Below are positions 5,234-22,067 of a stretch of DNA of 64,000 nt, piece after piece. The position numbers and the translations under genes were made by a program. The DNA comes from Actinomycetes bacterium (GTDB lineage Bacteria; Actinomycetota; Thermoleophilia; Solirubrobacterales; JACPNS01). The notes beneath the pieces are model-generated. The model did no database searches. It was not told the DNA's origin and was given only the letters and a program-made list of their open reading frames with translations. The stretch's first letter is position 1. Every line of letters starts with the position of its first letter. Where the stretch lies: NCBI GenBank assembly GCA_023404495.1, contig JAEYBE010000033.1, forward strand, positions 72,032 through 136,031, written 5' to 3'.

Positions 5234-5235
5234 TT

Positions 5236-6525
5236 TTGCGCGCAACGACAACCTCGCGGAAAGTCATCGTCCGATGTTTGCTCCCAGCTGTGCTCGTGAT
5301 CGTCGCGACGGGGTGGATCGCGGCTGCGCCAGCCGCGGCAGCGGACGCGAAGGTGAGCGGATTCAAGTCGAAAAAGATCGTCCTCGGCAAGTCGATCGCC
5401 GGTATCAGCATTCCGGGTAAGACACGTCAGCTCAAGTCCTCATTCGGCCAAGGCAAGCAGTGTCGAAAGACGAAGCAGACCATTTCGGTCCTGATGGGTC
5501 CGCAAAAGCTCCTTGAATGCGTCGCGCCGCTGCGCAGCGATCGACCGTTCGTCCTCGCGTCTGGACACGTAGGGAAGAGGGGCGATCTAATCGGCGTGGT
5601 CAGTGCATGTGGGTACTCCTCCAAAGCGATTGACCACCTCAACTGCAGGGGCGGATTAGGCGAAATGACGATAGATCCCGGCGGGTACAAACTCGGTTAT
5701 CCATTGAGCGCGATGGGACAATTGAGCAACTCATTTTTAGATGCGACGCTCGAGCCGATCAAGTCGACTCCCGCCCAGGGCGCCAATCAGGTCGCGTGGC
5801 CTACGAAGGTCCTTGCACGGCAGTATCGGCACAACATGACCCAGCTGTTCTTTGCTCCAACCAACGGCGAACTCATGTCGGTTGTGATGCGCTGGGTCCC
5901 CTGGCGAGATTTTAGGCCGAGCTCAAACGCGATTGTCTTGGGCGAAAGGATGGCCGGGCTGAAACTGGGCGACTCACTGGCCGAGATGAAGAAGCGAATC
6001 AGCTCGAAGGAGTCGTTCGGCCGCTTTTCGTTCTGCGGCCGGTACTCCGGCAGTCGTCGTTGGTGCAGCATAAAGAACACTGAGCTCGGTCCGGTTTTCG
6101 ACGCTGTAACCCACAAGGGCCGGGTCGTCTACCTGCGGTCCGAGTGCCAATCGCTGAAACTCGCAGGCTACGCCTTGCTGCTGGGGGTAAAGAATGTCGA
6201 GAACACCGGTACGTCCATGCCGTGCGCAGAGGACAAAGTCAACATGCCCATCGTGCCGATCTTCGCGAAGCTCGGACAATCGCTTCCCCAGGTCGAGGCG
6301 AAGCTCGCCGGTTTTACCAAGCTCGACTCTCAGCTGAGCGTCCCGGAAGGGATTGGTTCAAGCCTTCACCCAACGTACCTCGATGACTTTTTCAATGTCA
6401 GCCTGATCTTTGACTCGAACCAAAGCGAGACCATCTTCTTCCGCGACAGCGCGACCTCGCGGACCATCCTGCAGTTCAGTTCCTCAGGGCGCCTGTACAA
6501 GGTCACGATCGGCGCGCTCAAATGA
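5236..6525 (+). CDS. hypothetical exported protein with internal G-x-x-L-G-x-S repeats
   Basis: The ORF opens at 5176, overlapping the upstream gene. TTG 5236 directly follows the upstream stop and precedes the signal-like segment VIVRCLLPAVLVIVATGWIAAAPAAAADA. No family is recognised. Confidence 0.55.
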   Translation: MRATTTSRKVIVRCLLPAVLVIVATGWIAAAPAAAADAKVSGFKSKKIVLGKSIAGISIPGKTRQLKSSFGQGKQCRKTKQTISVLMGPQKLLECVAPLRSDRPFVLASGHVGKRGDLIGVVSACGYSSKAIDHLNCRGGLGEMTIDPGGYKLGYPLSAMGQLSNSFLDATLEPIKSTPAQGANQVAWPTKVLARQYRHNMTQLFFAPTNGELMSVVMRWVPWRDFRPSSNAIVLGERMAGLKLGDSLAEMKKRISSKESFGRFSFCGRYSGSRRWCSIKNTELGPVFDAVTHKGRVVYLRSECQSLKLAGYALLLGVKNVENTGTSMPCAEDKVNMPIVPIFAKLGQSLPQVEAKLAGFTKLDSQLSVPEGIGSSLHPTYLDDFFNVSLIFDSNQSETIFFRDSATSRTILQFSSSGRLYKVTIGALK

Positions 6526-8047: not shown

Positions 8048-8683
8048 CTACTTTGAGGCCGGTTTCTTGGCCGCAGGCTTGCGAGCGGCCGGCTTCTTGG
8101 CTGCGGGCTTCTTTGCCGCAGGCCTCTTCGCGGCCGATGCCTTTGCCGCCGGCTTCTTGGCAGCAGGCTTGCGGGCGGCGCTGGCCGACGTGCGGCTGGC
8201 GCTGCGAGCGGCTGGCTTCTTGGCTGCCGGCTTCTTCGCCGCTGGCTTCTTGGCTGCGGGCTTCTTGGCGGCAGGCTTGCGAGCGGCCGGCTTCTTGGCG
8301 CTCGTCGAGCGACGCTTTGCGGCAGCAGAAGACGCGGGCTTGCGGGCCGGCTTCTTCGGAGCAGCACCCGGGGTCGCCGCGCGCACGCGGGCCTCGAGGT
8401 CGTTGAAGCGGTCCTCGAGCGAATTGATCAGATCGCGCGCGCTTTCGAGTTCGTCGGACGCGCTCTTGCGGATCTCGTCGGATGCTTTGCGCAGCTCCTC
8501 ACCGACGTTCTTGACTTCATCGACGATCGACCGGGAGAACCGGTCGGCCGCATCTGTCACCTCATCAAGCACACCCTTGGCGCGCTTGCGGTCGAAGTTG
8601 TCTCCAAGGGTCGCCTCGAAAGTCTTCTCGACGGCGGATCGGAGTTGGTCGGTGATGCCCTGTGCGGACTTTTTCGTAGCCAT
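8048..8683 (-). CDS. coiled-coil protein with Lys/Ala/Pro-rich (AAKKP-repeat) histone-H1-like / HbhA-like tail
   Basis: ATG 8683 (MATKKSAQG...) was chosen inside the longer ORF 8048..8875. A ~105-aa helical, charged N-terminal part is followed by a ~105-aa tail of PAAKKPAAKKPAARKP repeats. Confidence 0.7.
   Translation of the reverse strand: MATKKSAQGITDQLRSAVEKTFEATLGDNFDRKRAKGVLDEVTDAADRFSRSIVDEVKNVGEELRKASDEIRKSASDELESARDLINSLEDRFNDLEARVRAATPGAAPKKPARKPASSAAAKRRSTSAKKPAARKPAAKKPAAKKPAAKKPAAKKPAARSASRTSASAARKPAAKKPAAKASAAKRPAAKKPAAKKPAARKPAAKKPASK
8051..8365. repeat. coding low-complexity tandem repeat (about 15-nt AAKKP units)
   Basis: Repeated cttcttggc[n]gc[n]ggc units occur, and a longer internal duplicate (caggcttgcgagcggccggcttcttggc) appears near 8073 and 8272. 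Confidence 0.8.
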
Positions 8684-8710
8684 AGACGGCATACGATACC
8701 GGCGATCGCG

Positions 8711-9472
8711 ATGGCGCGCCTCGAAGACATCGAACTGCCAGAAGGCGATGCAGCGGGGACGCTGCACCTGAATCCGGCCGCGCAGTTTCATCCCAATGTC
8801 TTGCTGCCCGGCGACCCCGCGCGAGCGATGGCGATCGCCACCGATCAGCTGACCGCCCCGCGCATGTTCAACCACCGCCGCGGGCTGTGGGGCTACTCGG
8901 GTGAAACCGAGGCCGGCACCGGATTCACGATCCAGGCCAGCGGAATGGGCGGGCCGAGCGCGGCCATAGTCGTAGAGGAACTCTGTGATCTTGGCGCCGA
9001 AGTGATCGTGCGGGTTGGGACCTGCGGGGCGCTTGATCCGGAGGTGCGGTTGGGTGACCTTGTTGTTGTGACGTCTGCTGTTAGCGACGACGGCGCAAGC
9101 CGGGCGCTCGGCGCTGAAGATGAGATTGAAGGAGACGCCGAGCTGCGCGGGTGGTTGATCGCCGAGGCCGGCTTGACTTCACGGCGGGTGCATGCCGGGA
9201 AGGTGGCGACGGTCGACCTCTTTTATGACCCGGCTGCTGATGATCGCCACCGGGCGCTGGTCGCTCGCGGCGCCGTCGCCCTAGAAATGGAGGCCGCGGC
9301 GGTGTTCGCCGTGGCGGCGCGACGAGGAGTTCGGGCTGCCTGCTTGCTCGGCGTCACCGACGAGCTCTATCCAGAGGACAGCCGCGCGCGCCTCGACCAC
9401 GACGCGATCGGCGAACTAGGTCGCGACCTAGGCGCCGTAGCTGTGGCGTCCGTGTCTGCCGCGCGGAACTAA
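8711..9472 (+). CDS. nucleoside phosphorylase, PNP/UDP family 1 (purine- or uridine-phosphorylase-like)
   Basis: Motifs GMGGPSAAIVVEEL, RVGTCGAL and LEMEAAAVFAVA. ATG 8711 was chosen to avoid overlap with the divergent gene. Substrate cannot be assigned. Confidence 0.75.
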   Translation: MARLEDIELPEGDAAGTLHLNPAAQFHPNVLLPGDPARAMAIATDQLTAPRMFNHRRGLWGYSGETEAGTGFTIQASGMGGPSAAIVVEELCDLGAEVIVRVGTCGALDPEVRLGDLVVVTSAVSDDGASRALGAEDEIEGDAELRGWLIAEAGLTSRRVHAGKVATVDLFYDPAADDRHRALVARGAVALEMEAAAVFAVAARRGVRAACLLGVTDELYPEDSRARLDHDAIGELGRDLGAVAVASVSAARN

Positions 9473-9484
9473 GCGGCGGATCTG

Positions 9485-9515
9485 CGCAAGTCTGCGCTCC
9501 GAGCGCAGACTTGCG
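9485..9515 (+). terminator. hairpin terminator after the nucleoside phosphorylase gene
   Basis: CGCAAGTCTGCGCT-ccg-AGCGCAGACTTGCG forms a perfect 14-bp stem starting 13 nt after the stop codon. There is no clear T-tract. Confidence 0.55.
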
Positions 9516-9823
9516 AACAAAACGCCCGTGAAATGGGATCTCGCGCGAAAGATACCTAGCTCGGGGGAGTAAACGAGTGGCCTCAAATCCATTAAAGAGG
9601 TCATGACCTCGGCGCACATACCCCAAAACTCTTCCCGCAAATTACTTGCTTTTTGGAGCGCCAGCGGATATACAAGACCCAGCGCACATCTCGGCGTCCC
9701 CATGGGACGTGTGCGTTCTATCTGGCAGCGCCGCCTCTCGCGCGGGGGAAACGTAAGGGCGGGAGGCGGCTGCGCCAATTCGCTCAACCCTGTTAGTCCA
9801 ACACGATCGGCCGTCGCTCGGGG

Positions 9824-11017
9824 GTGCCGATGACAGACTCGGCATCGCGCGTTGACGACGCGCCCACGGCCACTTCGCTCAATCGACTGGAGATCGACCG
9901 CCTAGCAACGGACATCGTTGCGGAGTACGGGCCGATGATCATGGGCGACGCATGCCGCTTCAGCGCCACGCGAGAGGATGCCGAAGACGCCTACCAGCGA
10001 GCGCTCGAGCTGCTACTGACCAAGGCGCCTTCAAATGACCGAGGCCAGTTGCTCCCGTGGCTGCGCACCGTCGTCCGCAACGAGGCGTTGCAGATCGCAA
10101 GGTCGCGGCAGAAGCGCGAGGTCGAAACCGCGCCACACAGGTTCGAGGGCGTCGAGTCGGCGCGGCGTGGCCCTGAATCAGCTGCAGAGGCCGCATCGGA
10201 GATCGAAATGGGATTCGAAGCGCTGGGGCGGCTGACCCAGGACCAGATCAAATGCATGCTCGCGCAAGCCGAAGGTCTTGAGTACCACGAAATTGCCGCA
10301 CGAACCGGATTCTCGAGGAGGAAAGTCACCCGGTGTCTCGAGCATGGGCGCGAGGCATTCGCAAAGCGTTTCGAGGCGATTGCTGCCGGGTCTGAATGCG
10401 AGCGCATGCAGCCGCTGATCCGGCGAGTGCTCCAGTCCGATGCTGCAGCGGCGCTCGAACTTCGTCCTCATCTCCGGCACTGCCTTGCCTGTCGCGCGCG
10501 GCTGCGGGCATATGAGTCGGCTCCTCGCGACGTCGCCGCCATGCTGCCGCCGGCAATCGTCATCACGCAACTCGCACCAACCGGCCTCCTCGCGCGGATT
10601 TCCGCCTGGTGGGAATCGTTGGCACTCCGATTCGCCTCGTTTGCCCCTGGCGGCACCGGCTGGTCCGAGATTGCCGTTGCGAAAAAGGTCGCCGCGATGG
10701 CGGCGATCGCCGCTGCCGCGTCGGGCGGAGGATTCGCCGCCGAGCGATACCTGCAACACGAAACAGGGTCGGCTTCGGACAGGGCGCCACGTGCCGGCAT
10801 CGCCGAGTCGCGCCCGATGTTCGACCCGCTGAGCGTGCCCGCACGAAAGCGCGATCGCCCTCGGAATCGCCGTAAGACCCGCTCCGATGACGCGAAAACA
10901 GAGGAAACCGCATCCGTGCCGCAGGCGGCGAATTCTGCAGCTCCGCCGGCGGCAACTCCAACCCCGGCCGACGACGGTTCGGCCGAATTCAGTCCCGAAT
11001 CGAGGTCCGCACCATGA
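9824..11017 (+). CDS. ECF sigma factor fused to a ZAS-type anti-sigma motif, a hydrophobic segment and a Pro/Ala-rich tail
   Basis: Sigma region 2-like DAEDAYQRALELLL...LLPWLRTVVRNEALQIARSR and region 4 HTH LTQDQIKCMLAQAEGLEYHEIAARTGFSRRKVTRCLEHGR. These are followed by HLRHCLAC (HxxxCxxC, nt 10469..10492), an Ala-rich hydrophobic segment (aa 283-306) and a disordered tail. The stop overlaps the next start (ATGA at 11014..11017). Confidence 0.8.
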   Translation: MPMTDSASRVDDAPTATSLNRLEIDRLATDIVAEYGPMIMGDACRFSATREDAEDAYQRALELLLTKAPSNDRGQLLPWLRTVVRNEALQIARSRQKREVETAPHRFEGVESARRGPESAAEAASEIEMGFEALGRLTQDQIKCMLAQAEGLEYHEIAARTGFSRRKVTRCLEHGREAFAKRFEAIAAGSECERMQPLIRRVLQSDAAAALELRPHLRHCLACRARLRAYESAPRDVAAMLPPAIVITQLAPTGLLARISAWWESLALRFASFAPGGTGWSEIAVAKKVAAMAAIAAAASGGGFAAERYLQHETGSASDRAPRAGIAESRPMFDPLSVPARKRDRPRNRRKTRSDDAKTEETASVPQAANSAAPPAATPTPADDGSAEFSPESRSAP

Positions 11018-14000
11018 GCCGTACGATCAAGCTAAGAACCTGTCACTTTGTCCTGAGTTGCTTCGTAGCGCTGACGTTGGTCGTCGTGTCAACACAGTCC
11101 GCCAACGCCGGCACGTACACGGTCAACCCGATTCCCTGTTCGACCGCCAGCCCAACATCAGGTCAAGACGGCTGGGCCTTCGGTGCGTACTGCGGGAATT
11201 TCAGCGCCTTCTACATGCAGCTGAACTCTACTCCCGACCACCCGGTCGGCTCTCCGGGCACGATCTTCTACACGAAGTACGGACGCGTGCGCAGCGGCGC
11301 AAGTATCACGCAGCTGACGCTCACACGCAGCTCCTCCGGACTTGAGCCCGACGCCCAAGGAACGCCGCGCATCACGCCAAGCTTTTGCCTGCGCACATCC
11401 GGCCTAGCTGACGGATGGACTGCTGCAAGCGACGGCGGTTGCGCAGTTCTCCCACTCAACAACAACGGTCAACCCGCGCTGACAGACAGCGGCAGCTTTA
11501 CGAACCTCACATACAACTCCAACTGCGGAGGCAACTGCGACGGCTTTCAAGTCCGCGCTCGCTCTGGCGCCACCGGCGGCTACCTGGGCATTTCAGGTAT
11601 TTCCGCAATCGTGGATGACACCACGAATCCCACAACTTCGATTGCGGCAGGCCCAGCGGCGAACTCAAATCAGTGGGTTCGCGGCGCGACTGTCGCAATC
11701 GCCGCCGACTCGTCGGACACCGGCGGCGGGATCAAGTCGACCGCCCTCACCATCCAGAGTCCGCTTACGACACTGAAGACGGTCTCCGCGAGCTGCGATT
11801 TCGCCACTTGGAACCCTTGCCCAACGACACGGAACTGGACCTCGACCTTCGACTCAACGCAAACGCAGGACGGCACCTACACGGCTCGCTACACCGCAAC
11901 CGACGCGGGCGACCGCACCGCCAGCAGCGCAAACTTCTCACTGCGCATCGACAACACCAATCCGGAGACGCCCAAGGACATCGAATCCCAAACCACCGGC
12001 ATGAACGGTTGGAGCTCATCAAACTCTTTCGCCGCCAGCTGGACGAATGGCATCGAAGTCGCCGAGACTCAGACGCAGTCAGGAATCAGCGCCGTCGTGG
12101 TCGACGTTGAGCCGACAACCGGATCTCAGACTGACCCGGCGGCCGTGGAAGTGCCGGTAGGGGGGAGCGCTTCGGGGATCTCCGCGACGCTTGACTCCGT
12201 CTCGGGAGTTACCGTGCCGACCGAGGGCGCCTGGACGCTTGAGCTTGCCCTCAAGGACCGCGCCGGCAACGTCTCGCCAGTTGGAGCCGGCAGTGACCCG
12301 GCGACTGACGGCAAGACGTCGATTGGTTGGGACACACTGCTCCCCGGATCTCCGGATGGTCAGGCAAATGGCTGGATCAGCCGCGATGAACTTGCAGCTG
12401 GGTTTGATCAGGAGTTCTCGTACGTGGCGCCAGTCGGTGCTCAAGCACCTGTCTGCGGCTTCGCCGGCGCGATCGACAAAAACATCAACGGCACCACCGG
12501 AACCTCAATCAACGTCCCTGGCGGTGGCGACGCGAAGACGTGGCGCCTCCCCGGCACACTCGATGAAGCCACCCACTACGTCCACCTTCGCGCCGTCAGT
12601 TGCAACGGGACCGTTTCTCAAGCAACAACCACTGTCGCAGCTCCCGTCGACCGCACCGACCCAGTCGGCTCGATCGACGGAGTTGAGGACGGCAATTGGT
12701 ATCAGGACGGCAAGGCCGTGACCCTCAGCGCGGTCGACACCCTTTCTGGCATGGCGCCAGCCGACCCGATCGAACCAAAGTCAACCGCTGGCGCATACCT
12801 CTCATACCGCGTTAACGGAAGCGGTCCAGCAGACGACGATTCTCCTCGCGGAGGCTCCACAGTCGTAAACGTCACCGGCGAAGGCCAGAAGACCCTCGAG
12901 TTCTCCCCGGTCGACTTCGCGAGCAACAGAGCTGTCGCGAAGACTGTCAACTTCGGCATTGACGCAACCGACCCGATCGGCTACGTCAAGTACCCGAACA
13001 GCGCCAAGCCCACGCTGCTTGAAGCATCGCTCAGCGACGTGCCTTCGGGCGTCTCCTACGCGGTCTTCTCAATCAAGAGGCAAGGGGGAGGATCCTGGGA
13101 AGACCTCCCTACCGGAACCACCGCCCAGGGCGGATCCAATGTTCTCGCCTCGGCGCGCTTCCCGGACACCGAGAAAGACGCCGGCACATATGACGTGCGG
13201 GTCCGCGCCTATGACCAGGCAGGCAACGCGCTGGCCACCCAGCGCTACCAGAACGGCCAGGTTGCAACGGTCGAAAACCCGATGAGGAGCAAGACCGAAA
13301 TTGACGTGAAGCTCTTCAAGGCACTTCGCACCTGCACGATCACCAAGAAGAAGAGCGGCAAGAAGACCAAGTGCATCGTCAAGAAGTGCACCAAGAAGAG
13401 CAAGGGCACGTGTTATCGCGTTCTGCGCGGTCGCGTTGTGCTCGTCGGCGGCTCCAAAGCCGTCACGTCCGAGTTCAAGCGCGGAGCACAGGCCGTTGGC
13501 GTCCTTTCCGACGAGAACGGCAAGCCGCTGGCAAACACCGACGTCAAGATCTCCACGACCGAGAAGTTCTCGGGCAAGCAGTCACTTGTCGGCGAGACTC
13601 GGACCGATTCCAACGGCATCTACAGCCTGCGCGTTCCGGCCGGCACCAACCGCACCGTTCGCGCCACATATGAGGGCAGCGAGACCCGCCGGCCGACTTC
13701 AACCACCGGCGAGCTCTCGACCCGAGCCAAGATGACGATAAAGCTCAGCAAGAAGCGCGCCCGCACGGGCCAGAGCGTCACCTTCTCCGGCAAGGTCACT
13801 CCGTTTGACGCAGTCATTCCCAAGGGCGGCAAGATTGTCGCGCTGCAGTTCTACGCAGCCAAGAAGTGGCGGCCAGCTGTTGGCGTTGCCCACACCGACG
13901 CAAACGGCAAGTTCAGGATCAAGTACACGTTCGACGGAGCGAAGGTGAAGGCAAAGATCATCTTCCGCGTTGTTGCCCCTTCAGAAGATGGCTGGGGTCA

Positions 14001-14046
14001 CGCCTACAGCGTGTCTAAGCCGAAGGTGATTCGCCTGAACTTCTAG
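11014..14046 (+). CDS. large secreted multi-domain protein with Ig-like repeats and a CarboxypepD_reg-like module
   Basis: 1010 aa with the signal peptide MSRTIKLRTCHFVLSCFVALTLVVVSTQSANA. Module boundaries recur as D-x-T-x-P (VDDTTNPT, IDNTNPET, VDRTDPVG, IDATDPIG) with D..SG[IVM] motifs. It also has a Lys/Cys-rich linker CTITKKKSGKKTKCIVKKCTKKSKGTC and a C-terminal GVLSDENGKPLANTDVKI...TDSNGIYSLRVPAG module. Confidence 0.7.
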   Translation: MSRTIKLRTCHFVLSCFVALTLVVVSTQSANAGTYTVNPIPCSTASPTSGQDGWAFGAYCGNFSAFYMQLNSTPDHPVGSPGTIFYTKYGRVRSGASITQLTLTRSSSGLEPDAQGTPRITPSFCLRTSGLADGWTAASDGGCAVLPLNNNGQPALTDSGSFTNLTYNSNCGGNCDGFQVRARSGATGGYLGISGISAIVDDTTNPTTSIAAGPAANSNQWVRGATVAIAADSSDTGGGIKSTALTIQSPLTTLKTVSASCDFATWNPCPTTRNWTSTFDSTQTQDGTYTARYTATDAGDRTASSANFSLRIDNTNPETPKDIESQTTGMNGWSSSNSFAASWTNGIEVAETQTQSGISAVVVDVEPTTGSQTDPAAVEVPVGGSASGISATLDSVSGVTVPTEGAWTLELALKDRAGNVSPVGAGSDPATDGKTSIGWDTLLPGSPDGQANGWISRDELAAGFDQEFSYVAPVGAQAPVCGFAGAIDKNINGTTGTSINVPGGGDAKTWRLPGTLDEATHYVHLRAVSCNGTVSQATTTVAAPVDRTDPVGSIDGVEDGNWYQDGKAVTLSAVDTLSGMAPADPIEPKSTAGAYLSYRVNGSGPADDDSPRGGSTVVNVTGEGQKTLEFSPVDFASNRAVAKTVNFGIDATDPIGYVKYPNSAKPTLLEASLSDVPSGVSYAVFSIKRQGGGSWEDLPTGTTAQGGSNVLASARFPDTEKDAGTYDVRVRAYDQAGNALATQRYQNGQVATVENPMRSKTEIDVKLFKALRTCTITKKKSGKKTKCIVKKCTKKSKGTCYRVLRGRVVLVGGSKAVTSEFKRGAQAVGVLSDENGKPLANTDVKISTTEKFSGKQSLVGETRTDSNGIYSLRVPAGTNRTVRATYEGSETRRPTSTTGELSTRAKMTIKLSKKRARTGQSVTFSGKVTPFDAVIPKGGKIVALQFYAAKKWRPAVGVAHTDANGKFRIKYTFDGAKVKAKIIFRVVAPSEDGWGHAYSVSKPKVIRLNF

Positions 14047-14191
14047 GTCAGCAAGCTTCAGCGTGATGCACTTGAGTGCCCTGGCCTATCCGGCCGCGGC
14101 GCTCTGGCGAAGCCGTGTGTTCGACATGTTCTTTGCGAGCTCGGTGCGCGCAAGGACCACGCGCCTCACGCCGATATAACAACAACTAGTC

Positions 14192-17100
14192 ATGTTCGCC
14201 AGAGAAGCCACCCGCCGCCTGATTGCGATGCAAGCCTTTGCCCTTGCTCTGGGCATAACTGTCGCGATCCAGCTCACGACCAGGGCAAGCTCCGCTCCGG
14301 CAACTCCTCCGGCCGCCAAGGTGAGCGCGCAGACCTATGCCCTTGCAGCTGAGTCACAGACGATCCTGGTGAACATTCGCCTGACCAAGACGACGCTGAT
14401 CGCCAGTCTCTCCGATGACGCCAAAGCCCTTCTTGCCACCACCCAGGGCACGACCGCGGCTCGCCGCGCGGCGCAGCGAAACCCGCAAGTGAAATCAAAC
14501 GCCGAGGTCGTTGCCGCTTCGATCGCCGAGAGTTCTCGCAACGCAGCTCTTCCGGCAATTCGCCGCGCAGCAAAAGGAGGCATCGCGCAGAGCAACGTGA
14601 TGCAAGACCTGATCGCCCGCCGCGGCGCGAAGGTCATCTCTGCATCGCCGCTGCCAAACCAGATCGTTGCAAGGATTCCGGCGTCGCTGCTCGCCGAGCT
14701 TGAACGCAATCCGAATGTTGCCAGTGTGACGACAGCCAAGCTGCCAGTGTGGATGAGCGGACCCGGTGATGAGTCCTACGTCTGGCGCAACGCCGGCTTC
14801 ACAGGCCAGGGCAGCTCGCTAGACGGCAAGGGCAGCCCGGATTTCGTCGTCGTCGACACCGGCGCTCGCACGACGCACAACTACTTCAAATCTCGGCTTC
14901 CGGAAGATTGCCCAACCTGCGACGGCACCGGGCCATCCCGCATCACATCACCAGTCGTTCGCAACGACTTCTCCGGTTCCAAGCACACCAACGTGATCGT
15001 CGGGCAAGTCGCAAGTACCGCGCTGAGTACTTCCGCCGACACCGGTATGGCCTACGGCATCGACAAGGTCTACGACGCATACCAGGCATACAGTCCCTAC
15101 CTCTGGCTGCTTGGAATCAGCGCACCCAGACCAAGCAATTACTCGACCAGCCTCCCCGCCAGCGACCCTGGCCTTGGCGGCCTAGACGATCTGCCGGAAG
15201 TTTTCAATTACAGCGCCGGCATCTACGAGGACACGACAGACCTGAACACCGACTGGCGCTTTTTTGATTCGCTTGAAGCCAATTACGGGATGCTCACCAC
15301 CGTTAGCGCCGGCAACTGCGGTATCGCCACACCATCTTTCACAAACTGCGCCGACGGGCCGCACCGCGTCTCCACTCCCACCACCAACTACAACGTCCTC
15401 AGCGTCGGCGCCATGCAATCGCCCACCGTATATCCAGACACTTCCGGCTACGAGGCCTGGGAAAACACATCGCCAGGACCGACATGGGGGGGACGCAAGA
15501 AGCCCGACGTGATCACATCGCCGTTCAGCACCGGCGGCAACGCTTCTCAGCTCAACGACACCGGCGACGCAACCGGAATCGGCTCCGGCACCAGCTACGC
15601 CGCCCCCAAAGCCGCAGCCGGCGCACTCCTTCTCGCATCAGTCGGCGTCTACAAGCCCACCGCACAAAAAGCCATTCTGATCAACTCGGCAACGCCAGTG
15701 CAAGGCCAGACCTACTGGATGCCGCGAACCGGCTGGGGGGCGCTGAGCCTCGACAAGGCCTTCACCCAGCGCGGCAATTACGCCAACGCTGAAGTCCACG
15801 GCGCAGGGCCAAACTCCGCCCGCTTCTTCGAGACGACCGGAGTTTCGGTAGGAGACAGGGCCACGCTGGTCTGGAACCGCCGCACCGGCACCGAGTCGGT
15901 GCTCGACCCCAGCTATTACAACCTCACCAACCTCGACCTCTCGCAGATCTCGCCAGCTGACTCCACTGGCGCAACAGTGACCTCGACTGGCGGATCCGAT
16001 GCGGCGGACACGGTCGACACCGACCAGACCTTCACCGACGACAACCCGATGCCCGGCAACGGAGACGACGGCGGCGACAACGTTGAGCAGATCCGCTCTA
16101 CAGCCACGGGAACGCAGATCCTCAAGGTCAAGGCACTCTCGAGCGTCGACGGCGCCACCACAGAGCCCTTCTCGATCGCCGCGCGCAATCCCGTGAATGC
16201 GATCGCCAGCCCGATCGCCAGCGTCGATGCATCGCCAAGCACGGCTCTCGCCGGCCCTGGCCAAAGCGTCACGATAAATGCGACCAGTTCCAATCCATCA
16301 AGCGCGCTCGCCCTCACCGGCGCCCAGGCGACAATCAACTTGCCCGGTGGAGTTTCGCTCACCGCCGGCACAGCCACGCAAAGTCTCGGCACGCTGGCCT
16401 CCGGCTCACCGGCCGCGGCCAGCTGGACCGTGCAGGGCTCTGCCACCGGCGTAAAGAACATCACCGTCACCACAAGCGGCACTGCCTACGGAGAAACCTT
16501 CGCGGGATCCGACGCAGCAGACTTCACAGTCGACGCCGACCCGCCAATCTTGACGCTCGATTCCAAGCCGCAGTTCTCGCCGAGCAGCTCGCCGAGCTTC
16601 TCTTGGTCTGCCGCTGATGCACTCAGCTCAGTCGCGAGCTACGACGCAGAGGTTCAGATCGACGGCGGCAGCTGGACACAGGTGCTTGATGCCAGCACCG
16701 ACACTTCTTACGAGGCCTCAGGCTCAGATGGCCAGCTCGTCGCAGTGCGCGTTCGCGCGCGCGACACCTTTGGAAACCTGTCGGACTGGTCTGAAGCATC
16801 AACAACGATCGACACCTCGCCGCCGGTCGTCAACTTCGGGCCCTCCAGCTCGCCGGTCCGCGGGGCTATCGCCGTGCCGGTCTCCGTCTCGAGCGCAGGT
16901 TCTCCCGTCACGAGCTCCTCCTACTCCTTCGCGCCCGGCGCGACAGCCGCGGCCCTACCGCTTCCCGCCAGTCCGACGTACTTCAACAAGCTCGACTCGG
17001 CCGTGCAAGCAACGCTGATTGTTACGGCAACAGATGCGCTCGGCCGCGCGACCACCCGCAGCCAGATCTACACCGCCGGACCCAAGCGACTCGCGCCCGC

Positions 17101-17368
17101 ACTGCGCATCTCAAGCGCCAAGGCCAAGCGCCGAGTTGCAACCGTTTCGGGGACGATCGCCAAAGAGGCCGCCGGCACCATCTTCGTGACAATCCAGCGC
17201 ACCACCAAGAAGGGGACGCGCCGCGTCGTCAAGGAAGTACGCGCCTCCGGTGGCCGATACAAGGCGAAGATCCGCCTAAAGCCTGGTCGCTACAAGGCGA
17301 CGGTGCTTTGGCCAGGGTCGACGTCACTCACGCGTCAATCGTTGACGCGCCAACTGACCGTCCGGTAG
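14192..17368 (+). CDS. secreted S8-family subtilase with C-terminal CARDB/FN3-like and basic Ig-like domains
   Basis: 1058 aa. Motifs are FVVVDTGA (Asp), a divergent His region SKHTNVIVGQ, TVSAGNCG (Asn) and GSGTSYAAPKAAAGALLL (Ser). It has an N-terminal hydrophobic signal and an I9-like propeptide. There is no LPXTG. Confidence 0.75.
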   Translation: MFAREATRRLIAMQAFALALGITVAIQLTTRASSAPATPPAAKVSAQTYALAAESQTILVNIRLTKTTLIASLSDDAKALLATTQGTTAARRAAQRNPQVKSNAEVVAASIAESSRNAALPAIRRAAKGGIAQSNVMQDLIARRGAKVISASPLPNQIVARIPASLLAELERNPNVASVTTAKLPVWMSGPGDESYVWRNAGFTGQGSSLDGKGSPDFVVVDTGARTTHNYFKSRLPEDCPTCDGTGPSRITSPVVRNDFSGSKHTNVIVGQVASTALSTSADTGMAYGIDKVYDAYQAYSPYLWLLGISAPRPSNYSTSLPASDPGLGGLDDLPEVFNYSAGIYEDTTDLNTDWRFFDSLEANYGMLTTVSAGNCGIATPSFTNCADGPHRVSTPTTNYNVLSVGAMQSPTVYPDTSGYEAWENTSPGPTWGGRKKPDVITSPFSTGGNASQLNDTGDATGIGSGTSYAAPKAAAGALLLASVGVYKPTAQKAILINSATPVQGQTYWMPRTGWGALSLDKAFTQRGNYANAEVHGAGPNSARFFETTGVSVGDRATLVWNRRTGTESVLDPSYYNLTNLDLSQISPADSTGATVTSTGGSDAADTVDTDQTFTDDNPMPGNGDDGGDNVEQIRSTATGTQILKVKALSSVDGATTEPFSIAARNPVNAIASPIASVDASPSTALAGPGQSVTINATSSNPSSALALTGAQATINLPGGVSLTAGTATQSLGTLASGSPAAASWTVQGSATGVKNITVTTSGTAYGETFAGSDAADFTVDADPPILTLDSKPQFSPSSSPSFSWSAADALSSVASYDAEVQIDGGSWTQVLDASTDTSYEASGSDGQLVAVRVRARDTFGNLSDWSEASTTIDTSPPVVNFGPSSSPVRGAIAVPVSVSSAGSPVTSSSYSFAPGATAAALPLPASPTYFNKLDSAVQATLIVTATDALGRATTRSQIYTAGPKRLAPALRISSAKAKRRVATVSGTIAKEAAGTIFVTIQRTTKKGTRRVVKEVRASGGRYKAKIRLKPGRYKATVLWPGSTSLTRQSLTRQLTVR

Positions 17369-17487
17369 TCGCTCCAGTTCCGACGTCCAGCGAACAGATT
17401 CATCGGCGGCCGCGCAACTGCGCCCAATTCGCTACGAAGAAGTCCGCCCGCGTTCGCATAGGCGCAACGTAGGTAAGCGGCAAATCC

Positions 17488-17521
17488 TCCAAGCGGCCAC
17501 CCCGCGGGGTGGCCGCTTGGA
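17488..17521 (+). terminator. perfect 34-nt palindrome (terminator-like hairpin), copy 1
   Basis: TCCAAGCGGCCACCCCG|CGGGGTGGCCGCTTGGA lies 120 nt after the subtilase stop and sits within a 59-nt repeat (17475..17533). Confidence 0.6.
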
Positions 17522-17683
17522 AGAAATCTGGCTTGAAACGGCCGGACGCCATTTGAGCGACGGACACCACGCACGCCCGTTCTAGCGACGCCGATCGCAG
17601 AAATTTCACAACCACACCCCCACCCCCTCACGGATCACAGGTCAAAGGGCCAACAAGCCCAATTCGATCTGGAGGAAACCCCA

Positions 17684-18256
17684 ATGTCCACAACCATCAA
17701 CAACCGCGCATGGCTAACTCGTGCAGCCGTCGCAATCACAACTATCGCTGTCGCAATGCTCCTCGCATTCGCCGGCACGGCAAGCGCAGCCCTCAAGGGC
17801 AAGACCACCCTGGCCCTCGACCCCGGTGCCGCTGGCGCGCTCACCTCGCTCGGCGTAAGCGTCGCTCCCGTCGCCCCTGCAACCGCTGGCGCTGACGGCG
17901 TCTCCTTCCCCATCACCGGTGTTGGCGGCAGCCTCATCCCGCCGGCGCTGAAGGTCAAGCACAGCGGCGGACTCTCGCTCACGGCCGGACCGACGACGGT
18001 CAGCCTCACCAACTACACGATCCTGATCGACCGGTCGCCGGATCTGGTTGCGACGGTCAATGGCGGCCCGCGCGTCTCGATCCTCAAGCTTGACCTCTCG
18101 AAGGCTCGGCTCGGGATCGGCGGTGGCGGCCTGACGCTCGGACCGGTCAAGGCCAGCCTCACCCAGTCAGCGGCCAGCGCACTCAACGGCGCGTTCGGTG
18201 TGAGTGCATTCACGAAGGGCCTGGTGCTCGGCAACGCGACGGTGAAGATCGGCTGA
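17684..18256 (+). CDS. hypothetical secreted protein
   Basis: 190 aa with a GGAGGA RBS 8 nt upstream and the signal peptide AVAITTIAVAMLLAFAGTASA. The mature part is Gly/Ala/Leu/Thr-rich and no family is recognised. Confidence 0.6.
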   Translation: MSTTINNRAWLTRAAVAITTIAVAMLLAFAGTASAALKGKTTLALDPGAAGALTSLGVSVAPVAPATAGADGVSFPITGVGGSLIPPALKVKHSGGLSLTAGPTTVSLTNYTILIDRSPDLVATVNGGPRVSILKLDLSKARLGIGGGGLTLGPVKASLTQSAASALNGAFGVSAFTKGLVLGNATVKIG

Positions 18257-18297
18257 TCTCACCGCAGACGGGCCTGTCGCAAACAAGCGGCAGATCT

Positions 18298-18331
18298 TCC
18301 ATGAGGCGACCCCGCGGGGTCGCCTCATGGA
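18298..18331 (+). terminator. perfect 34-nt palindrome (terminator-like hairpin), copy 2
   Basis: TCCATGAGGCGACCCCG|CGGGGTCGCCTCATGGA lies 42 nt after the stop and sits within a 59-nt repeat (18285..18343). Confidence 0.6.
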
Positions 18332-18447
18332 GTTAATTTGGCTCCAAATGGCGGGGCCGATTCTCGCGGCCGGCCCCGCAAATCGCTCGGCCAGCGCCCC
18401 GCGAAAACCCCCACCACGCAAATTCGGCGAAATTCACCCAATATTGG

Positions 18448-18476
18448 TTGCAAACATTCGTCCATATGTTTATACC
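18448..18476 (+). promoter_or_regulatory. candidate sigma-70-type promoter (TTGCAA-N17-TATACC) for the CBS-domain gene
   Basis: The hexamers have 17-nt spacing in a locally AT-rich stretch. The inverted repeat AAACAT-N8-ATGTTT lies within the spacer. Confidence 0.35.
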
Positions 18477-18662
18477 AATCGGTATTTTTCGCATACCCTT
18501 GCATCGGGACGGAGTTCACGGGGGGTTCCGTGGATTTGCGCGGAGGTGTCTTCTGACCTAGGCGCTCTGGATCAGAGGCACTTCTGCGACGTCCCACTTT
18601 TCTTTTTCCGCGGCGAGAGCTCGTGCCTCCGCCGCGGTTCTTATTGCGCAATACTGGAGCCT

Positions 18663-19337
18663 ATGGAAGCCGGCAGCATCAACACAACCCTGCTCAGCTC
18701 GGCCACTGTTGGCGAGGCTATGGGCGCCGTGCACCTGGTGCTTGCGAACACCCCTGTATCTATCGCCGCCGGTCACTTCATGCAGAACCGCGGCCGCGCG
18801 CTGGTGGTCGACACGGGCGATGACTCGCCATCGATCTTTACGGAGTTCGATGTCGTGAAGATGGTCGCGGCCGGCGTCAGCCCCGAAGGCAAGACGGTCT
18901 CCGACTTCCACACTCGCACGGCGGTCGCCGCGAAGCCTTCCTGGTCGCTCGAGCGCGCGCTGCACACGATGATGGTCGGGCAGTTCCGCCACCTTGTCGT
19001 GATGGACGGCGGCCAGGTTGTCGGGATGCTTGCGATGCGCGACATTCTTGATCTGGTTGTCGAGCACGCCGAGGAGCCCGAGGCGATCGGCGAGAACGAG
19101 ACGGTCGAGATCGCGGCGGTCGTCCCCGACGACTCGACTCGCCTGCTGCACAACTTGCGCCGTAGCGCCAAGCAGCACTGGGTTGCGATCAAGTGCGACT
19201 GCGAAGTCGATTGGATCGACGTCGTGATCGGCCAAGCCGAAGAGCGCCAGGATCTCTCGGCCGACGAGCTGCAAGAACTCTGGGAACAGCGTCCGCCCTG
19301 CCCCACGCTAAACAGCATGGGCGGCGGCGGCGATTAG
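18663..19337 (+). CDS. CBS domain pair protein with a C-terminal extension
   Basis: ATG 18663 (GGAG 6 nt upstream) was chosen inside the longer ORF from 18327. Two CBS-like units are present (GRALVVDTGD..IFTEFDVVKMV and FRHLVVMDGGQVVGMLAMRDILD). Confidence 0.7.
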   Translation: MEAGSINTTLLSSATVGEAMGAVHLVLANTPVSIAAGHFMQNRGRALVVDTGDDSPSIFTEFDVVKMVAAGVSPEGKTVSDFHTRTAVAAKPSWSLERALHTMMVGQFRHLVVMDGGQVVGMLAMRDILDLVVEHAEEPEAIGENETVEIAAVVPDDSTRLLHNLRRSAKQHWVAIKCDCEVDWIDVVIGQAEERQDLSADELQELWEQRPPCPTLNSMGGGGD

Positions 19338-20923: not shown

Positions 20924-22036
20924 TCAGTACGAGATCAAGTCGATGTGGAAGATTGGGCTGGCCAGCGAGTCGCTCGCGACGCGGATCGATCCCGAGCCGA
21001 AGCGCCCAGCGGATCGCAGCGCCTTGACGCGAATCGAGCATCCGGTGTCAGGCAGCAGAGCAGCGCCGCAGTCGTTGCTGACGATCCTGAACGGACCGCT
21101 ACCGACCGAGATGCGGTTGACCTGCACGGACTGCGCGCTGGGATTGCGGAATCGAAGCGTTTTCACCCGCTGAGGTCCGCGCTTGCGCAAGAACCTCACC
21201 CACTCCGTCGGAGCGATCTGGCGTTGCATGAACTGCGCGACGTAGGTCGAGTAGCTCGAGACCCGTGTAAAAACGTTGAAAGGATTCGAGCGGCAGCGGC
21301 GAGCGGTGAAGCTCGTGATGCCGACGAGCAGGCCATCGTTGACCAGCGGCCCGCCACTGTCGCCGTTGCAGACGCTCTTGTCCGGATCCGACGCCTGGCC
21401 AGCGCAGATCATCGACGCCGGAATCTGGCTCTTCCAGCTGCGGCGGCACGAATCGAGCGAGCGGATCTGGAGCTGGGCGGTGCGCATGATGTCCTCTGCG
21501 TCGCGGCGCGATTGGCTGCGCAGACCCCAGCCGGAGATCGTGCCGAGCGCGCCCTCGGCAGGCATCCAGTCGCTCGGTGCCAGCGGGATCGTCTGCTGGG
21601 TGCTCGGTCGCGCGAGCTTGATCAGCATCAGGTCGGCCTTCAGGTTGTTGAGGCCGTAGATCCACTTTGGGTGCTGGTAGGTGCCGATGATCGGGATCAC
21701 TTCGCCGTGGGTCTCGTCGGTCAGGTCGGCGCGCCCGACGACGACGAAGCGCGGGACGACGTTGTCGATCAGGGTGTCCTTGCAGTGGGCCGCCGTGAGC
21801 ACCCACTGCGGCGCGATCAGCGATCCGCCACAGAGAAACGTGTCGATGTTCTGTTTGCGCAGGAGCCCGACTTGGTACGGAAATTCGCTGTCAAAGCGCT
21901 CTTGCGATACCGGCACGCCGCCGACCACGGAGGTCTGGGCCGAGTGCGCCGACGCCGACGCCGGGATCGCAAACAAAAAGAGAGCCGCGACGAAGACCGC
22001 GGCCCGAAGTTTGTGGCTCAGAAATGTTGCACGCAT
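20924..22036 (-). CDS. secreted trypsin-like serine protease (S1) with a C-terminal Ig-like (choice-of-anchor-D/ASH-like) domain
   Basis: LTAAHC (His), GDSGGPL (Ser) and the signal peptide LRAAVFVAALFLFAIPASASA. ATG 22036 was chosen within the ORF that extends to 22096. Confidence 0.8.
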   Translation of the reverse strand: MRATFLSHKLRAAVFVAALFLFAIPASASAHSAQTSVVGGVPVSQERFDSEFPYQVGLLRKQNIDTFLCGGSLIAPQWVLTAAHCKDTLIDNVVPRFVVVGRADLTDETHGEVIPIIGTYQHPKWIYGLNNLKADLMLIKLARPSTQQTIPLAPSDWMPAEGALGTISGWGLRSQSRRDAEDIMRTAQLQIRSLDSCRRSWKSQIPASMICAGQASDPDKSVCNGDSGGPLVNDGLLVGITSFTARRCRSNPFNVFTRVSSYSTYVAQFMQRQIAPTEWVRFLRKRGPQRVKTLRFRNPSAQSVQVNRISVGSGPFRIVSNDCGAALLPDTGCSIRVKALRSAGRFGSGSIRVASDSLASPIFHIDLISY

Positions 22037-22067
22037 TGGTGGCGGGAGCGTACCTGACGCAGCGACC

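Follow-up and report, generated by a model that had tools for sequence, protein, structure and literature searches.

A single-chain ECF sigma factor and ZAS anti-sigma domain encoded beside an Ig-like exoprotein in a Thermoleophilia genome

The window, by which we mean the whole 64,000-nucleotide stretch of DNA analysed, comes from a soil actinobacterium of the class Thermoleophilia and contains a gene whose single product joins an ECF sigma factor to a zinc-binding (ZAS) anti-sigma domain, a probable membrane helix and a disordered tail ending in an EFxP peptide. The scenario that we favor, with moderate confidence, is that the anti-sigma part inhibits the sigma factor in cis and that the extension is removed to activate it. 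The recurrent unit is the sigma fusion together with an Ig-like exoprotein. An earlier note on this DNA had recognized the fusion; the C-terminal EFxP peptide, a two-hairpin 5' leader RNA and conserved promoter-like blocks in front of the sigma gene are features beyond it. The features of the locus are as follows.

9551..9606 (+), conserved DNA block TAC..GGGAGT-N21-TTAA..ATG; positions unchanged across 14 orthologous loci
9645..9674 (+), bipartite promoter-like element CTTGC(T)-N17-TATACA; 14 loci
9675..9783 (+), structured 5' leader RNA with two hairpins (~9681-9716 and 9723-9776); covariation
9830..11017 (+), ECF sigma/ZAS anti-sigma fusion gene, 395 aa from ATG 9830 (mechanical reading frame from GTG 9824)
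9917..10354 (+), ECF sigma core, regions 2 and 4; Pfam, TIGR02937, SigE, AF2 and Foldseek
10391..10639 (+), class I anti-sigma domain with ZAS zinc motif; motif, conservation, zf-HC2 family matches and AF2
10670..10741 (+), Ala-rich, weakly hydrophobic helix, a putative single transmembrane segment (aa 283-306)
10742..11014 (+), disordered Pro/Ala/Arg-rich tail ending in a conserved peptide
10970..10999 (+), C-terminal peptide DDGSAEFSPE (aa 383-392)
11014..14046 (+), gene of a 1010-aa secreted multi-beta-sandwich (Ig-like) protein, p1010; ATGA overlap with the sigma gene
14192..17368 (+), gene of a 1058-aa secreted S8 subtilase; profile of orthologs, triad and motif
17485..17524 (+), perfect GC-rich hairpin of 15 bp that lacks a U-run, 117 nt past the end of the subtilase gene
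17684..18256 (+), gene of a 190-aa secreted protein
18297..18332, strongest terminator-like hairpin, 3' of the 190-aa gene

The three large reading frames were found where the note had placed them (9824..11017, 397 aa; 11014..14046, 1010 aa; 14192..17368, 1058 aa), as were the ATGA overlap of the sigma stop and the p1010 start at 11014..11017 and the 145 nt spacer between p1010 and the subtilase gene. Translation of the fusion likely begins at ATG 9830, because the database protein (P0001) has 395 aa and the ortholog alignments begin there. The GC content of the block is 61-62%, not the 53% of the note's 60-nt samples, compared with ~64% in the window, and GC3 is 0.71-0.75 compared with 0.8-0.9 in the adjoining genes. 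The hairpin reported near 17488 is present and is a possible terminator, but the strongest terminator-like hairpin lies further on, after the 190-aa gene. That gene was not found in any orthologous locus and is probably outside the conserved module.

Sigma regions 2 and 4 are matched by Pfam Sigma70_r2 (aa 32-97; E 1.4e-7, above the Pfam cut-off) and Sigma70_r4_2 (aa 132-177; E 2e-3, below the cut-off), and the fusion protein also matches TIGR02937 (E 6e-11) and Mycobacterium tuberculosis SigE (E 8e-12). Foldseek matches of the fusion model are ECF sigma factors, with superpositions that are poor overall (TM 0.3-0.4). The AF2 model has pLDDT values above 90 over sigma2 and sigma4 and over anti-sigma helices I-III, a confidence that would be compatible with inhibition in cis. 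The extension that follows sigma4 is, judged by its motif and conservation, a class I zinc-binding anti-sigma domain. It contains the HLRHCLAC motif (aa 216-223, nt 10469..10492) seen earlier, and C192, 23 residues upstream, is a candidate fourth zinc ligand, completing the motif C192-x23-H216-x3-C220-x2-C223 (nt 10397..10492); all three Cys residues are invariant among 120 homologs, and H216 is kept in at least 90% of them. Four helices are predicted by AF2 (aa ~190-203, 207-219, 221-240 and 255-272; pLDDT 77-96). The zf-HC2 identity of this part is family-level evidence: Pfam zf-HC2 has no match in the window protein itself but does match 68 of the 120 family members, and standalone zf-HC2 proteins match the fusion over aa ~190-250 at E 1e-10.

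The hydrophobic stretch described at aa 283-306 is present but marginal. Its Kyte-Doolittle 19-residue maximum is 1.49 and the family mean 1.58, and 47 of 119 members reach the 1.6 threshold; the charge bias around it is weak (2.6 versus 2.0 K/R) and its AF2 pLDDT is below 50. A KK pair is conserved in front of the helix and a GGG run lies within it (G302-G303, at least 90% conserved), and membrane tethering through this segment is plausible. The Pro/Ala/charged tail, given earlier as ~90 aa, has 91 (A16, R12, P12, S11). Within its terminal peptide six residues (G385, S386, E388, F389, P391 and E392) do not vary among 21 orthologs, and EF.P occurs in the last 15 aa of 108 of the 120 homologs, forming the exact C-terminal end in 57. 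The motif codons differ synonymously among relatives, and the EFxP motif is under protein-level selection. No confident docking of the tail or peptide was seen in the AF2 model (pLDDT 56-59).

A plausible sequence of events is that the anti-sigma helices would keep sigma2 and sigma4 of their own chain inactive, and that the sigma factor would be freed on removal or unfolding of the extension, as has been demonstrated for IutY and is proposed for ECF48, ECF52 and ECF53. An extracytoplasmic partner or protease may use the EFxP peptide as a handle, and the Ig-like protein, being the neighbour found again in independent contexts, would most likely be a dedicated partner or the immediate output of the sigma factor.

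Because the helix is marginal and its flanking charge bias weak, the tail could instead be cytoplasmic. The whole fusion would then be soluble, the Ala-rich helix would be no span, the ZAS domain would sense thiol or oxidative stress like RsrA and RshA, and EFxP would serve as a degron or as the place where a cytoplasmic protease or adaptor docks. Hydropathy below 1.6 in 72 of the 119 members agrees with this, as does the high Arg content of the tail (9% across the family; 12 R and 3 K among the 91 aa here), not a usual trait of exported segments; the full C-H-C-C zinc site is conserved, and soluble ZAS factors acting by conformational change are well known. However, the helix keeps its position and character (KK, ~14 A/V/T/I residues, GGG) throughout the family, segments that span the wall typically have long Pro/Ala linkers, ECF48/52/53 are described with one or two transmembrane helices, and the neighbours of the sigma paralogs consistently have envelope or secreted functions. 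We consider a cytoplasmic location unlikely and prefer the membrane-tethered arrangement.

The proteins encoded downstream, p1010 and the subtilase, both begin with signal-peptide-like N-termini, that of p1010 ending in ANA before G. Matches of p1010 in Pfam and NCBIfam are weak and all below curated cut-offs (Big_13, CarboxypepD_reg and an OmpL47-type barrel), and its AF2 model (pLDDT 84.7) is all-beta with ~10 domains, for which Foldseek returns Ig/FN3/MG domains in series as well as S-layer proteins and adhesins. There are 30 homologs, and the organism-named matches (5 of 30) are all from Solirubrobacterales or Thermoleophilaceae MAGs. Of 13 orthologs, at least 6 have the sigma gene joined to the p1010 gene by an ATGA or GTGA overlap, and in two paralog loci, L052 and L087, such an overlap is seen with genes of Big_13/CarboxypepD_reg proteins. 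One interpretation is that p1010 is an RseB-like or receptor-like partner which, outside the cell, would bind the EFxP tail and control the release of the sigma factor, such that the pair is a signalling unit. The frequent translational coupling among orthologs speaks for this, as does independent coupling to Big_13/CarboxypepD_reg neighbours in paralog loci L029, L052, L055 and L087, of which L029 shares one MAG with ortholog locus L009. Moreover, the p1010 N-terminal domain is replaced in L013, L014, L016, L018 and L019 (tblastn matches from aa 190-234), which is what a ligand-facing module might show. Nonetheless, some 50 of the 54 paralog loci have no such neighbour and yet keep the EFxP motif, and co-transcription is equally compatible with a plain operon of a sigma factor and its target, and we hold this specific role for p1010 to be a minority possibility.

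The identity of the subtilase as an S8 enzyme is supported at the family level, but Pfam Peptidase_S8 (PF00082) has no match in the window's 1058-aa protein itself, which the profile misses because of large insertions; the ortholog in locus L006 carries PF00082. A four-ortholog profile matches SubHal (8e-12), KP-43 (1wmd; 2e-11), human S1P (4e-7) and subtilisin prosegments (1.6e-4 to 5e-3). The protein is ordered as an I9-like propeptide (aa ~122-182), a divergent catalytic domain and beta-sandwich C-terminal domains, with catalytic residues D222, H265, N375 and S468, of which the triad and oxyanion Asn are invariant, and with the motif GTS[YF][AS]AP in 12 of 12 orthologs. By these comparisons it is a divergent, catalytically intact S8 subtilase.

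The earlier proposal that this enzyme is a dedicated site-1 protease, cutting the extracytoplasmic tail to start regulated intramembrane proteolysis as an analogue of SREBP/S1P, is unsupported, and we regard it as improbable. It is true that the subtilase is secreted, that its catalytic residues are kept in 12 of 12 orthologs, that the gene is present in 11 of 11 sufficiently long orthologous loci, that the disordered tail of the AF2 model is a plausible substrate and that the profile matches human site-1 protease, although the last is generic S8 similarity. However, the orthologous group always lies at one chromosomal position, with the Ig-like gene tightly coupled and the subtilase gene next; the trio is syntenic in 11 loci, with partner identity down to ~30%. 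Since one larger block of synteny surrounds the trio in every case, simple vertical inheritance could account for the conservation of the trio, which confounds the adjacency. None of the ~54 paralog loci with the ZAS, helix, tail and EFxP architecture adjoins a subtilase gene, and 42 adjoin sugar-transferase genes instead. Hairpins with T-rich tails separate the Ig-like and subtilase genes in L001, L018 and L010, with only that of L001 satisfying the consensus terminator scan. The bacterial site-1 proteases DegS and PrsW are not S8 enzymes. No S8 member is among those named in the literature retrieved, which has Prc for a fused sigma factor (PMC8999054) and signal peptidase for RsiP. It is more probable that the subtilase is a secreted product encoded at the same locus than that it is the protease which activates the sigma factor.

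That a frameshift in assembly or annotation joined separate genes, the default expectation for ZAS anti-sigma factors and a reading for which nothing else was found in favor, is already refuted as far as the sequence data go and may be set aside: an identical 395-aa protein is present on independent ENA, NCBI and Logan assemblies, sigma4 passes directly into anti-sigma helix I without a spacer in the AF2 model, and the architecture is common to more than 100 homologs, with sigma and HxxxCxxC in a single chain and frame in 119 of 120 (33-72% identity to the window protein), the sole apparent split gene being a contig-edge truncation and the short matches contig-edge or start-call truncations. 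In GTDB species genomes 472 relatives were found, of which the best 80 are all Thermoleophilia MAGs (Solirubrobacterales and Thermoleophilaceae), and the family appears restricted to this class.

Upstream of the sigma gene, the block at 9551..9606 is present once per window or locus and no consensus RNA structure was found for it. Its geometry, AGT-N20-AT(G/T)(T/A)A, is that of the motif AGTcAAAC-N15-AATGTAGCGG located 5' of 18 paralog sigma genes, and it resembles the ECF consensus loosely; the block is a candidate family-specific promoter or operator of ECF type, which may be autoregulatory. One ECF-type promoter common to 9824, 14192 and 17684, for which the note had proposed a search, is not supported, in that the block precedes the sigma gene only, and the spacer between p1010 and the subtilase is unconserved among orthologous loci. 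The element at 9645..9674 has invariant halves and spacing with a variable spacer sequence in 14 loci, from which we infer a promoter; it was not flagged by a consensus scan because it matches TTGACA/TATAAT at ~7 of 12 positions and its -10 lacks the final T. In the leader that follows, the second hairpin has an invariant GGGGG loop, and RNAalifold gives 27 pairs, with compensatory double changes in 12. Leader cells are paired at 94.6%, a value reached by none of 500 shuffles and compared with 35-53% in slid controls. A covariance model matches only 5' of the orthologous sigma gene, in 15 loci (59-114 bits on the + strand, at most 28 bits on the - strand), and no Rfam match was obtained even at E<=10.

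Several known systems provide a context for this locus. The catalytic Ser region and next beta-barrel domain of the subtilase are shared with KP-43 and SubHal (PDB 1wmd, 5fax), its best structural-sequence relatives, to which it adds the I9-like propeptide, ~400 aa of beta-sandwich domains and a basic C-terminus. Membrane ZAS factors of the RslA/SigL, RsdA and RskA type and the soluble RsrA and RshA have the same HxxxCxxC, upstream ligand and four-helix domain, but are separate polypeptides encoded beside the sigma gene, whereas here the domain is fused directly after sigma4. The Pseudomonas putida hybrid IutY (ECF243), shown experimentally to be released by Prc (site-1) and RseP (site-2) (PMC8999054), similarly combines a sigma domain, one transmembrane segment (putative in the window protein) and a C-terminal extracytoplasmic regulatory part; it differs in being FecI/FecR-type, Gram-negative, TonB-receptor coupled and without a ZAS motif, and its protease is S41 rather than S8. 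ECF48 and ECF53 have a C-terminal zinc finger (probably ZAS) and one or two transmembrane helices with predicted proteolytic regulation (PMC8999054); they resemble the window protein in this fusion and were compared by description only, in which no mention was found of a C-terminal EFxP, an Ig-like/subtilase context or an RNA leader. Also close in layout is ECF52, for example SCO4117 of Streptomyces coelicolor, with an ECF sigma, zf-HC2, a transmembrane helix and a proline-rich extracytoplasmic extension, for which proteolytic release is proposed and which has two promoters, one with its own motif (PMC5826349; PMC8999054). The window protein is likewise a single actinobacterial chain with a zinc finger, putative transmembrane helix and Pro-rich extension, preceded by two conserved promoter-like blocks, but its tail is 91 aa with an EFxP end, and no Streptomyces is present among the best 80 of 472 genome matches. 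The earlier note was thus correct in recalling fused actinobacterial groups, namely ECF48, ECF52 and ECF53; ECF52 membership is not supported, as the defining carbohydrate-binding module was not found. The fused sigma/ZAS/transmembrane design is already described in Actinobacteria, and what is new here is a Thermoleophilia-restricted variant with its own tail motif and RNA leader.

The three open reading frames lie where the earlier note placed them: the sigma fusion at 9824..11017 (397 aa), the Ig-like protein at 11014..14046 (1010 aa) and the subtilase at 14192..17368 (1058 aa). The ATGA overlap of the sigma fusion stop with the start of the 1010-aa gene is located at 11014..11017, a 145 nt spacer lies ahead of the subtilase gene, and the hairpin noted downstream is a perfect 15 bp stem at 17485..17524. 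The true start of the sigma fusion is probably ATG 9830, because the database copy (P0001) is 395 aa long and the orthologues align from there. The GC content of the block had been put at 53%, but is 61-62% as measured, versus about 64% for the window, and its GC3 is 0.71-0.75 versus 0.8-0.9 in neighbouring housekeeping genes. Horizontal transfer as a reading of the low GC is ruled out, as the block is just 2-3 points below the window and is syntenic across the order.

ECF (group 4) members of the sigma-70 family contain only the sigma2 and sigma4 regions in a core of about 170-190 aa, and the sigma fusion is organized in this way. Sigma70_r2 (aa 32-97) scores above the Pfam cut-off, and region 4 (aa 132-177) is recognisable and weak, as are the Pfam matches to Sigma70_r4_2 and Sigma70_ECF; the TIGR02937 match scores 42.3 bits relative to a cut-off of 42.9. 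Among 120 aligned homologues the r2 and r4_2 models match 118 and 101, respectively. Mycobacterium tuberculosis SigE matches the sigma fusion at E 8e-12, and the closest solved relatives, including those from Foldseek, are all ECF sigmas (Mtb SigE, AlgU, RpoE, SigL, SigH, SigK and SigW).

Class I anti-sigma domains of the ZAS subtype carry HxxxCxxC with an additional Cys or His ligand about 23-26 residues ahead, and the corresponding arrangement here is C192-x23-H216-x3-C220-x2-C223. The HLRHCLAC previously noticed corresponds to aa 216-223, and with C192, 23 residues ahead of it, the C-H-C-C zinc site is complete and of RsrA/ChrR type. All 120 aligned homologues keep C192, C220 and C223, and H216 is conserved in at least 90%. 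For the zf-HC2 assignment that had been proposed for checking, the window protein itself has no Pfam match to PF13490 even at E<=10, but PF13490 matches 68 of the 120 aligned family members (best 2e-9). Standalone zf-HC2 proteins match the window protein at E 1e-10 when only its C-terminal half is used in the search, and it is therefore a divergent member of the zf-HC2 domain family.

The fusion of both domains in one polypeptide stands. Searching 5.8 billion proteins with the sigma fusion gave 244 relatives, of which 120 were listed (270-467 aa), and in 119 of the 120 aligned homologues a single chain carries both HxxxCxxC and the sigma domains. Assemblies from ENA, NCBI and Logan, independent of one another, encode exactly this protein, and the sole seemingly split version, P0151, begins 64 nt from a contig end. 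A frameshift artefact, the concern raised in the earlier note, is ruled out by these observations.

An AlphaFold2 model built on the 120-sequence alignment has pLDDT values above 90 over sigma2, sigma4 and anti-sigma helices one to three, with the fourth helix at about 80; four helices (pLDDT 77-96) are predicted directly after sigma4, the hydrophobic helix is of low confidence, and the tail is disordered. Class I anti-sigma domains are helical and pack between sigma2 and sigma4, and the anti-sigma helices of the sigma fusion may dock there in cis.

The putative TM helix is kept in both position and style within the family, with KK, about 14 Ala/Val/Thr/Ile residues, and GGG. Its Kyte-Doolittle 19-residue maximum is 1.49 in the window protein, with a family mean of 1.58 and values of at least 1.6 in 47 of 119 members; the charge bias across it is weak, and membrane insertion of this Ala-rich helix is plausible. 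The tail is 91 aa in the window protein (13% Pro, 18% Ala) and is variable and of low complexity, with 20% Ala, 18% Pro and 9% Arg family-wide. Close to its end is a conserved peptide:

aa 383-392 of the sigma fusion (window 10970..10999): conserved C-terminal peptide DDGSAEFSPE

Six residues of DDGSAEF-x-PE are invariant among 21 orthologues, and the EFxP motif falls within the last 15 residues in 108 of 120 homologues, including paralogues in unrelated genomic contexts. It is exactly C-terminal in 57 of the 120, and 34 have at least one additional EFxP in the tail. The third codon positions of the motif vary freely, so that selection is on the peptide. AlphaFold2 predicts no docking of EFxP onto the folded part of the sigma fusion (pLDDT 56-59).

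We infer a mechanism in which the ZAS domain would hold its own sigma inactive in cis, with the chain possibly anchored in the membrane by the Ala-rich helix, and in which the sigma would be activated once the C-terminal extension is removed, perhaps by proteolysis, or unfolded. The EFxP-tipped tail would be the input element and the Ig-like protein most likely the dedicated partner or first output. The alternative that the sigma fusion is wholly cytoplasmic and controlled by redox or a degron is a serious rival in view of the low hydrophobicity of the helix and the many Arg residues of the tail, though we regard it as unlikely. Among fused sigma/anti-sigma proteins this Thermoleophilia family is a minimal version, without a sensor domain and with just a disordered tail that ends in a strictly conserved EFxP. 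If a signal is received by this tail, the short peptide is the obvious candidate to do so; it lends itself readily to mutation and testing, and so gives a handle on regulators of a class not yet studied.

A scan that took one genome for each GTDB species identified 472 relatives, the best 80 of which are all from Thermoleophilaceae or Solirubrobacterales metagenome-assembled genomes (MAGs). Within the orthologous group (sigma identity to the window protein of at least about 40%), the order of sigma fusion, ~1000-aa Ig-like protein and ~1060-1160-aa subtilase is present in every contig that is long enough (11 orthologous loci), even where the Ig-like and subtilase partners are just ~30% identical. 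These loci also share a wider neighbourhood, with MerR-cyclase and PNP_UDP phosphorylase genes upstream and CBS, SDR, RNase T and trypsin genes downstream, and the adjacency of the trio may therefore reflect simple vertical inheritance. One Solirubrobacterales locus (L015, 8058..9700) has a sigma gene truncated just before HxxxCxxC and two small genes (90 and 181 aa) in place of the Ig-like and subtilase genes, with the leader and flanking genes kept. This would be a naturally unfused sigma core, or else a pseudogene; as evidence for co-loss of the genes it is discounted, since one contiguous deletion or replacement accounts for it.

The paralogues, as an independent source of information, have different neighbours. 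None of 54 paralogous loci has a subtilase neighbour, and 42 of them carry divergently transcribed Bac_transf sugar-transferase genes upstream, often together with Wzy_C(-like), PMT_2 and PQQ beta-propeller genes, which suggests that these sigma paralogues control an envelope polysaccharide locus. The Bac_transf neighbours number from one to several (for example, L062 2377..3861, L075 3065..5122, L022 2393..3865 and L044 6416..8905). In four of the 54 (L029, L052, L055 and L087) the next gene downstream encodes a Big_13/CarboxypepD_reg Ig-like protein, overlapping the sigma gene in ATGA fashion in L052 and L087, and L029 is in the same MAG as the orthologous locus L009. The Ig-like partner thus recurs in paralogues and the recurrent unit is the sigma fusion plus an Ig-like exoprotein; the subtilase belongs to a single locus, itself lineage-specific. 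This two-fold family context, of envelope-polysaccharide and Ig-like exoprotein loci, hints at surface-remodelling regulons in an abundant uncultured soil lineage.

The 1010-aa protein has a signal-peptide-like N-terminus and weak, sub-cut-off Pfam/NCBIfam matches to Big_13, CarboxypepD_reg and an OmpL47-type barrel. It has only 30 homologues, and the five of these with named organisms are all from Solirubrobacterales or Thermoleophilaceae MAGs. A PDB search with its sequence gave no match; its confident AlphaFold2 model (pLDDT 84.7) shows about ten beta-sandwich domains in a row, similar to chains of the titin-like, MG-domain, S-layer and adhesin kinds. At the N-terminus, a Cys-rich beta domain (aa ~33-200, window 11014..11650) is unalignable in L013, L014, L016, L018 and L019, in all of which tblastn matches begin at aa 190-234, and this distal exoprotein domain has therefore been exchanged from lineage to lineage.

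S8 peptidases are defined by an Asp-His-Ser triad order with an oxyanion Asn in canonical motifs, and the 1058-aa protein contains D222 (DTG), H265 (GSKHTN), N375 (AGNCG) and S468 (GTSYAAP). All four residues are invariant among four subtilase orthologues, and GTS[YF][AS]AP is present in 12 of 12. A profile of the orthologues matches PDB subtilases (SubHal, KP-43 and human S1P among them) at E values down to 8e-12, and subtilisin prosegments match at aa ~122-182. PF00082 is present in the L006 orthologue; the window protein has no match to Pfam Peptidase_S8, and by itself matches just NCBIfam IteS at 1.7e-5, with PADLOC defence models returning nothing beyond weak IetS-like S8 similarity. The 1058-aa protein is a true subtilase, catalytically competent by its sequence. 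Neither it nor the 1010-aa protein has a sortase signal, and the two are not similar by BLASTP.

The locus lies between two more secreted proteases, a fervidolysin-like S8 subtilase on the upstream side (4361..6525, +; named from the Pfam labels of its L001 counterpart) and a trypsin-family protease downstream (20924..22096, -), and both are syntenic in the orthologous loci. With secreted proteases so common in this region, it is less striking than it looks that one adjoins the sigma gene. Also conserved in syntenic loci is a 275-aa protein (8048..8875, -) whose N-terminal half is coiled and whose C-terminal part is a long array of AAKKPAAKKP repeats, a histone-like Lys/Ala/Pro-rich tail.

Conservation is higher in the 280 nt ahead of the sigma gene than in the coding regions, and this stretch contains the following three elements:

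9551..9606, +: conserved DNA block TAC..GGGAGT-N21-TTAA..ATG, upstream of the putative leader promoter
9645..9674, +: invariant bipartite promoter-like element CTTGC-N18-TATACA
9675..9783, +: two-hairpin 5' leader RNA of 109 nt, supported by covariation

The first has no RNA structure and has AGT-N20-AT(G/T)(T/A)A geometry, as does a motif, AGTcAAAC-N15-AATGTAGCGG, located upstream of 18 paralogous sigma genes; it is a candidate family-specific promoter and may be autoregulatory. The second has a loose likeness to the housekeeping consensus, and a scan of 9000..19000 for consensus sigma-70 promoters found no sites; both promoter assignments are putative, with transcription predicted to start near 9680 and/or 9602. 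The leader has 27 base pairs, 12 of them with compensatory double changes, and 94.6% of cells are paired, a value reached by none of 500 shuffles and compared with 35-53% in slid controls. GGGGG in the loop of hairpin 2 and CUCGG in hairpin 1 are invariant. Its covariance model scores far better on the + strand, and all of its matches, in 15 Thermoleophilia loci including L017, which was outside the seed, lie ahead of the orthologous sigma gene. Rfam 15 has no gathering-score match across the window and none at E<=10 for 9470..9840, and a metagenome pattern scan for further leaders gave two chance matches, both of which fail the covariance model. The leader is thus a new candidate cis-regulatory element of a sigma factor gene. 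A 75-codon frame from ATG 9603 is open in most loci, and is broken or shifted in L005, L012 and L018; these indels break the frame while the nucleotides stay conserved, and it is therefore rejected as coding.

The sigma and Ig-like genes overlap, and their co-transcription is strongly suggested. The Ig-like/subtilase spacer is not conserved among loci, and those of L001, L018 and L010 contain T-tailed terminator-like hairpins (only that of L001 conforming to the consensus used to scan for terminators), with another seen by eye in L006; the window's own spacer has none. Co-transcription extending to the subtilase gene is therefore uncertain, and is not conserved. The shared promoter envisaged ahead of the sigma, subtilase and 190-aa genes was not found in motif searches, and there is no second copy of the block, the bipartite element or the leader before the Ig-like, subtilase or 190-aa genes. 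That 190-aa secreted protein (17684..18256, +) has no counterpart in the orthologous loci and seems to have been inserted in this lineage between the subtilase and CBS genes; the region's strongest terminator-like hairpin (18297..18332, 16 pairs) follows it. At the other end, a perfect 13 bp inverted repeat (GCGCAAGTCTGCG...CGCAGACTTGCGC, 9483..9514, +) directly 3' of the PNP_UDP-family gene is probably the terminator of that gene and the upstream limit of the sigma locus.

These relationships bear on the wiring proposed in the earlier note, in which the subtilase is the site-1 protease for the sigma fusion. Sigma/anti-sigma systems based on regulated intramembrane proteolysis (the RseA/DegS/RseP, RsiW/PrsW and IutY/Prc types) involve a site-1 cut in the extracytoplasmic part and then a cut by an S2P (M50) protease; here, with Pfam annotation covering the immediate neighbours of the locus, the link seen is a genomic association with an S8 protease. 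Adjacency speaks for the proposal, but it is contradicted by the paralogues, which keep the tail and the EFxP motif without a subtilase, and by the terminators between the Ig-like and subtilase genes in several orthologues; we consider it quite improbable. Were the link real, an S8 site-1 protease would be known in bacterial signalling for the first time, and present evidence is against it. Still harder to credit is a full bacterial counterpart of the eukaryotic SREBP/S1P system, in which a membrane-tethered fusion would display EFxP at the cell surface, the translationally coupled Ig-like protein would bind or shield it, the S8 enzyme would make the site-1 cut that sets sigma release in motion and the leader, of a kind not described before, would gate expression.

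To our knowledge, no class of ECF regulators is as poorly understood as the fused sigma/anti-sigma proteins, with experimental data only for SCO4117 and IutY. Three actinobacterial groups with fused ECF, zinc-finger and TM segments, ECF48, ECF52 and ECF53, have been described (PMC8999054; PMC5826349), of which SCO4117 is the only studied member, with proteolytic activation proposed (PMC5826349; PMC8999054); IutY is an experimentally processed sigma/anti-sigma hybrid (PMC8999054). ECF52, in the Huang 2015 / Pinto & Mascher definition as quoted in PMC5826349, has a zinc finger, one or more TM helices, a long Pro-rich extension and a C-terminal carbohydrate-binding module. The window protein shares the zinc motif, but its helix is marginal (KD 1.49), its tail is 91 aa, and it ends in EFxP in place of the carbohydrate-binding module, there being no Pfam or NCBIfam domain beyond aa 190; the ECF52 membership considered in the earlier note is thus not borne out on the carbohydrate-binding module. 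Compared by their descriptions, ECF48, ECF52, ECF53 and IutY work alike on paper with the window protein, which is a variant within the known kind of fused sigma and does not amount to a new kind. It is set apart by the EFxP peptide, the restriction to Thermoleophilia (best 80 of 472 relatives), the coupling to Ig-like exoproteins and the structured leader, none of which we found described. Its value lies mainly in EFxP and the leader RNA as testable handles, rather than in the proposed subtilase wiring.
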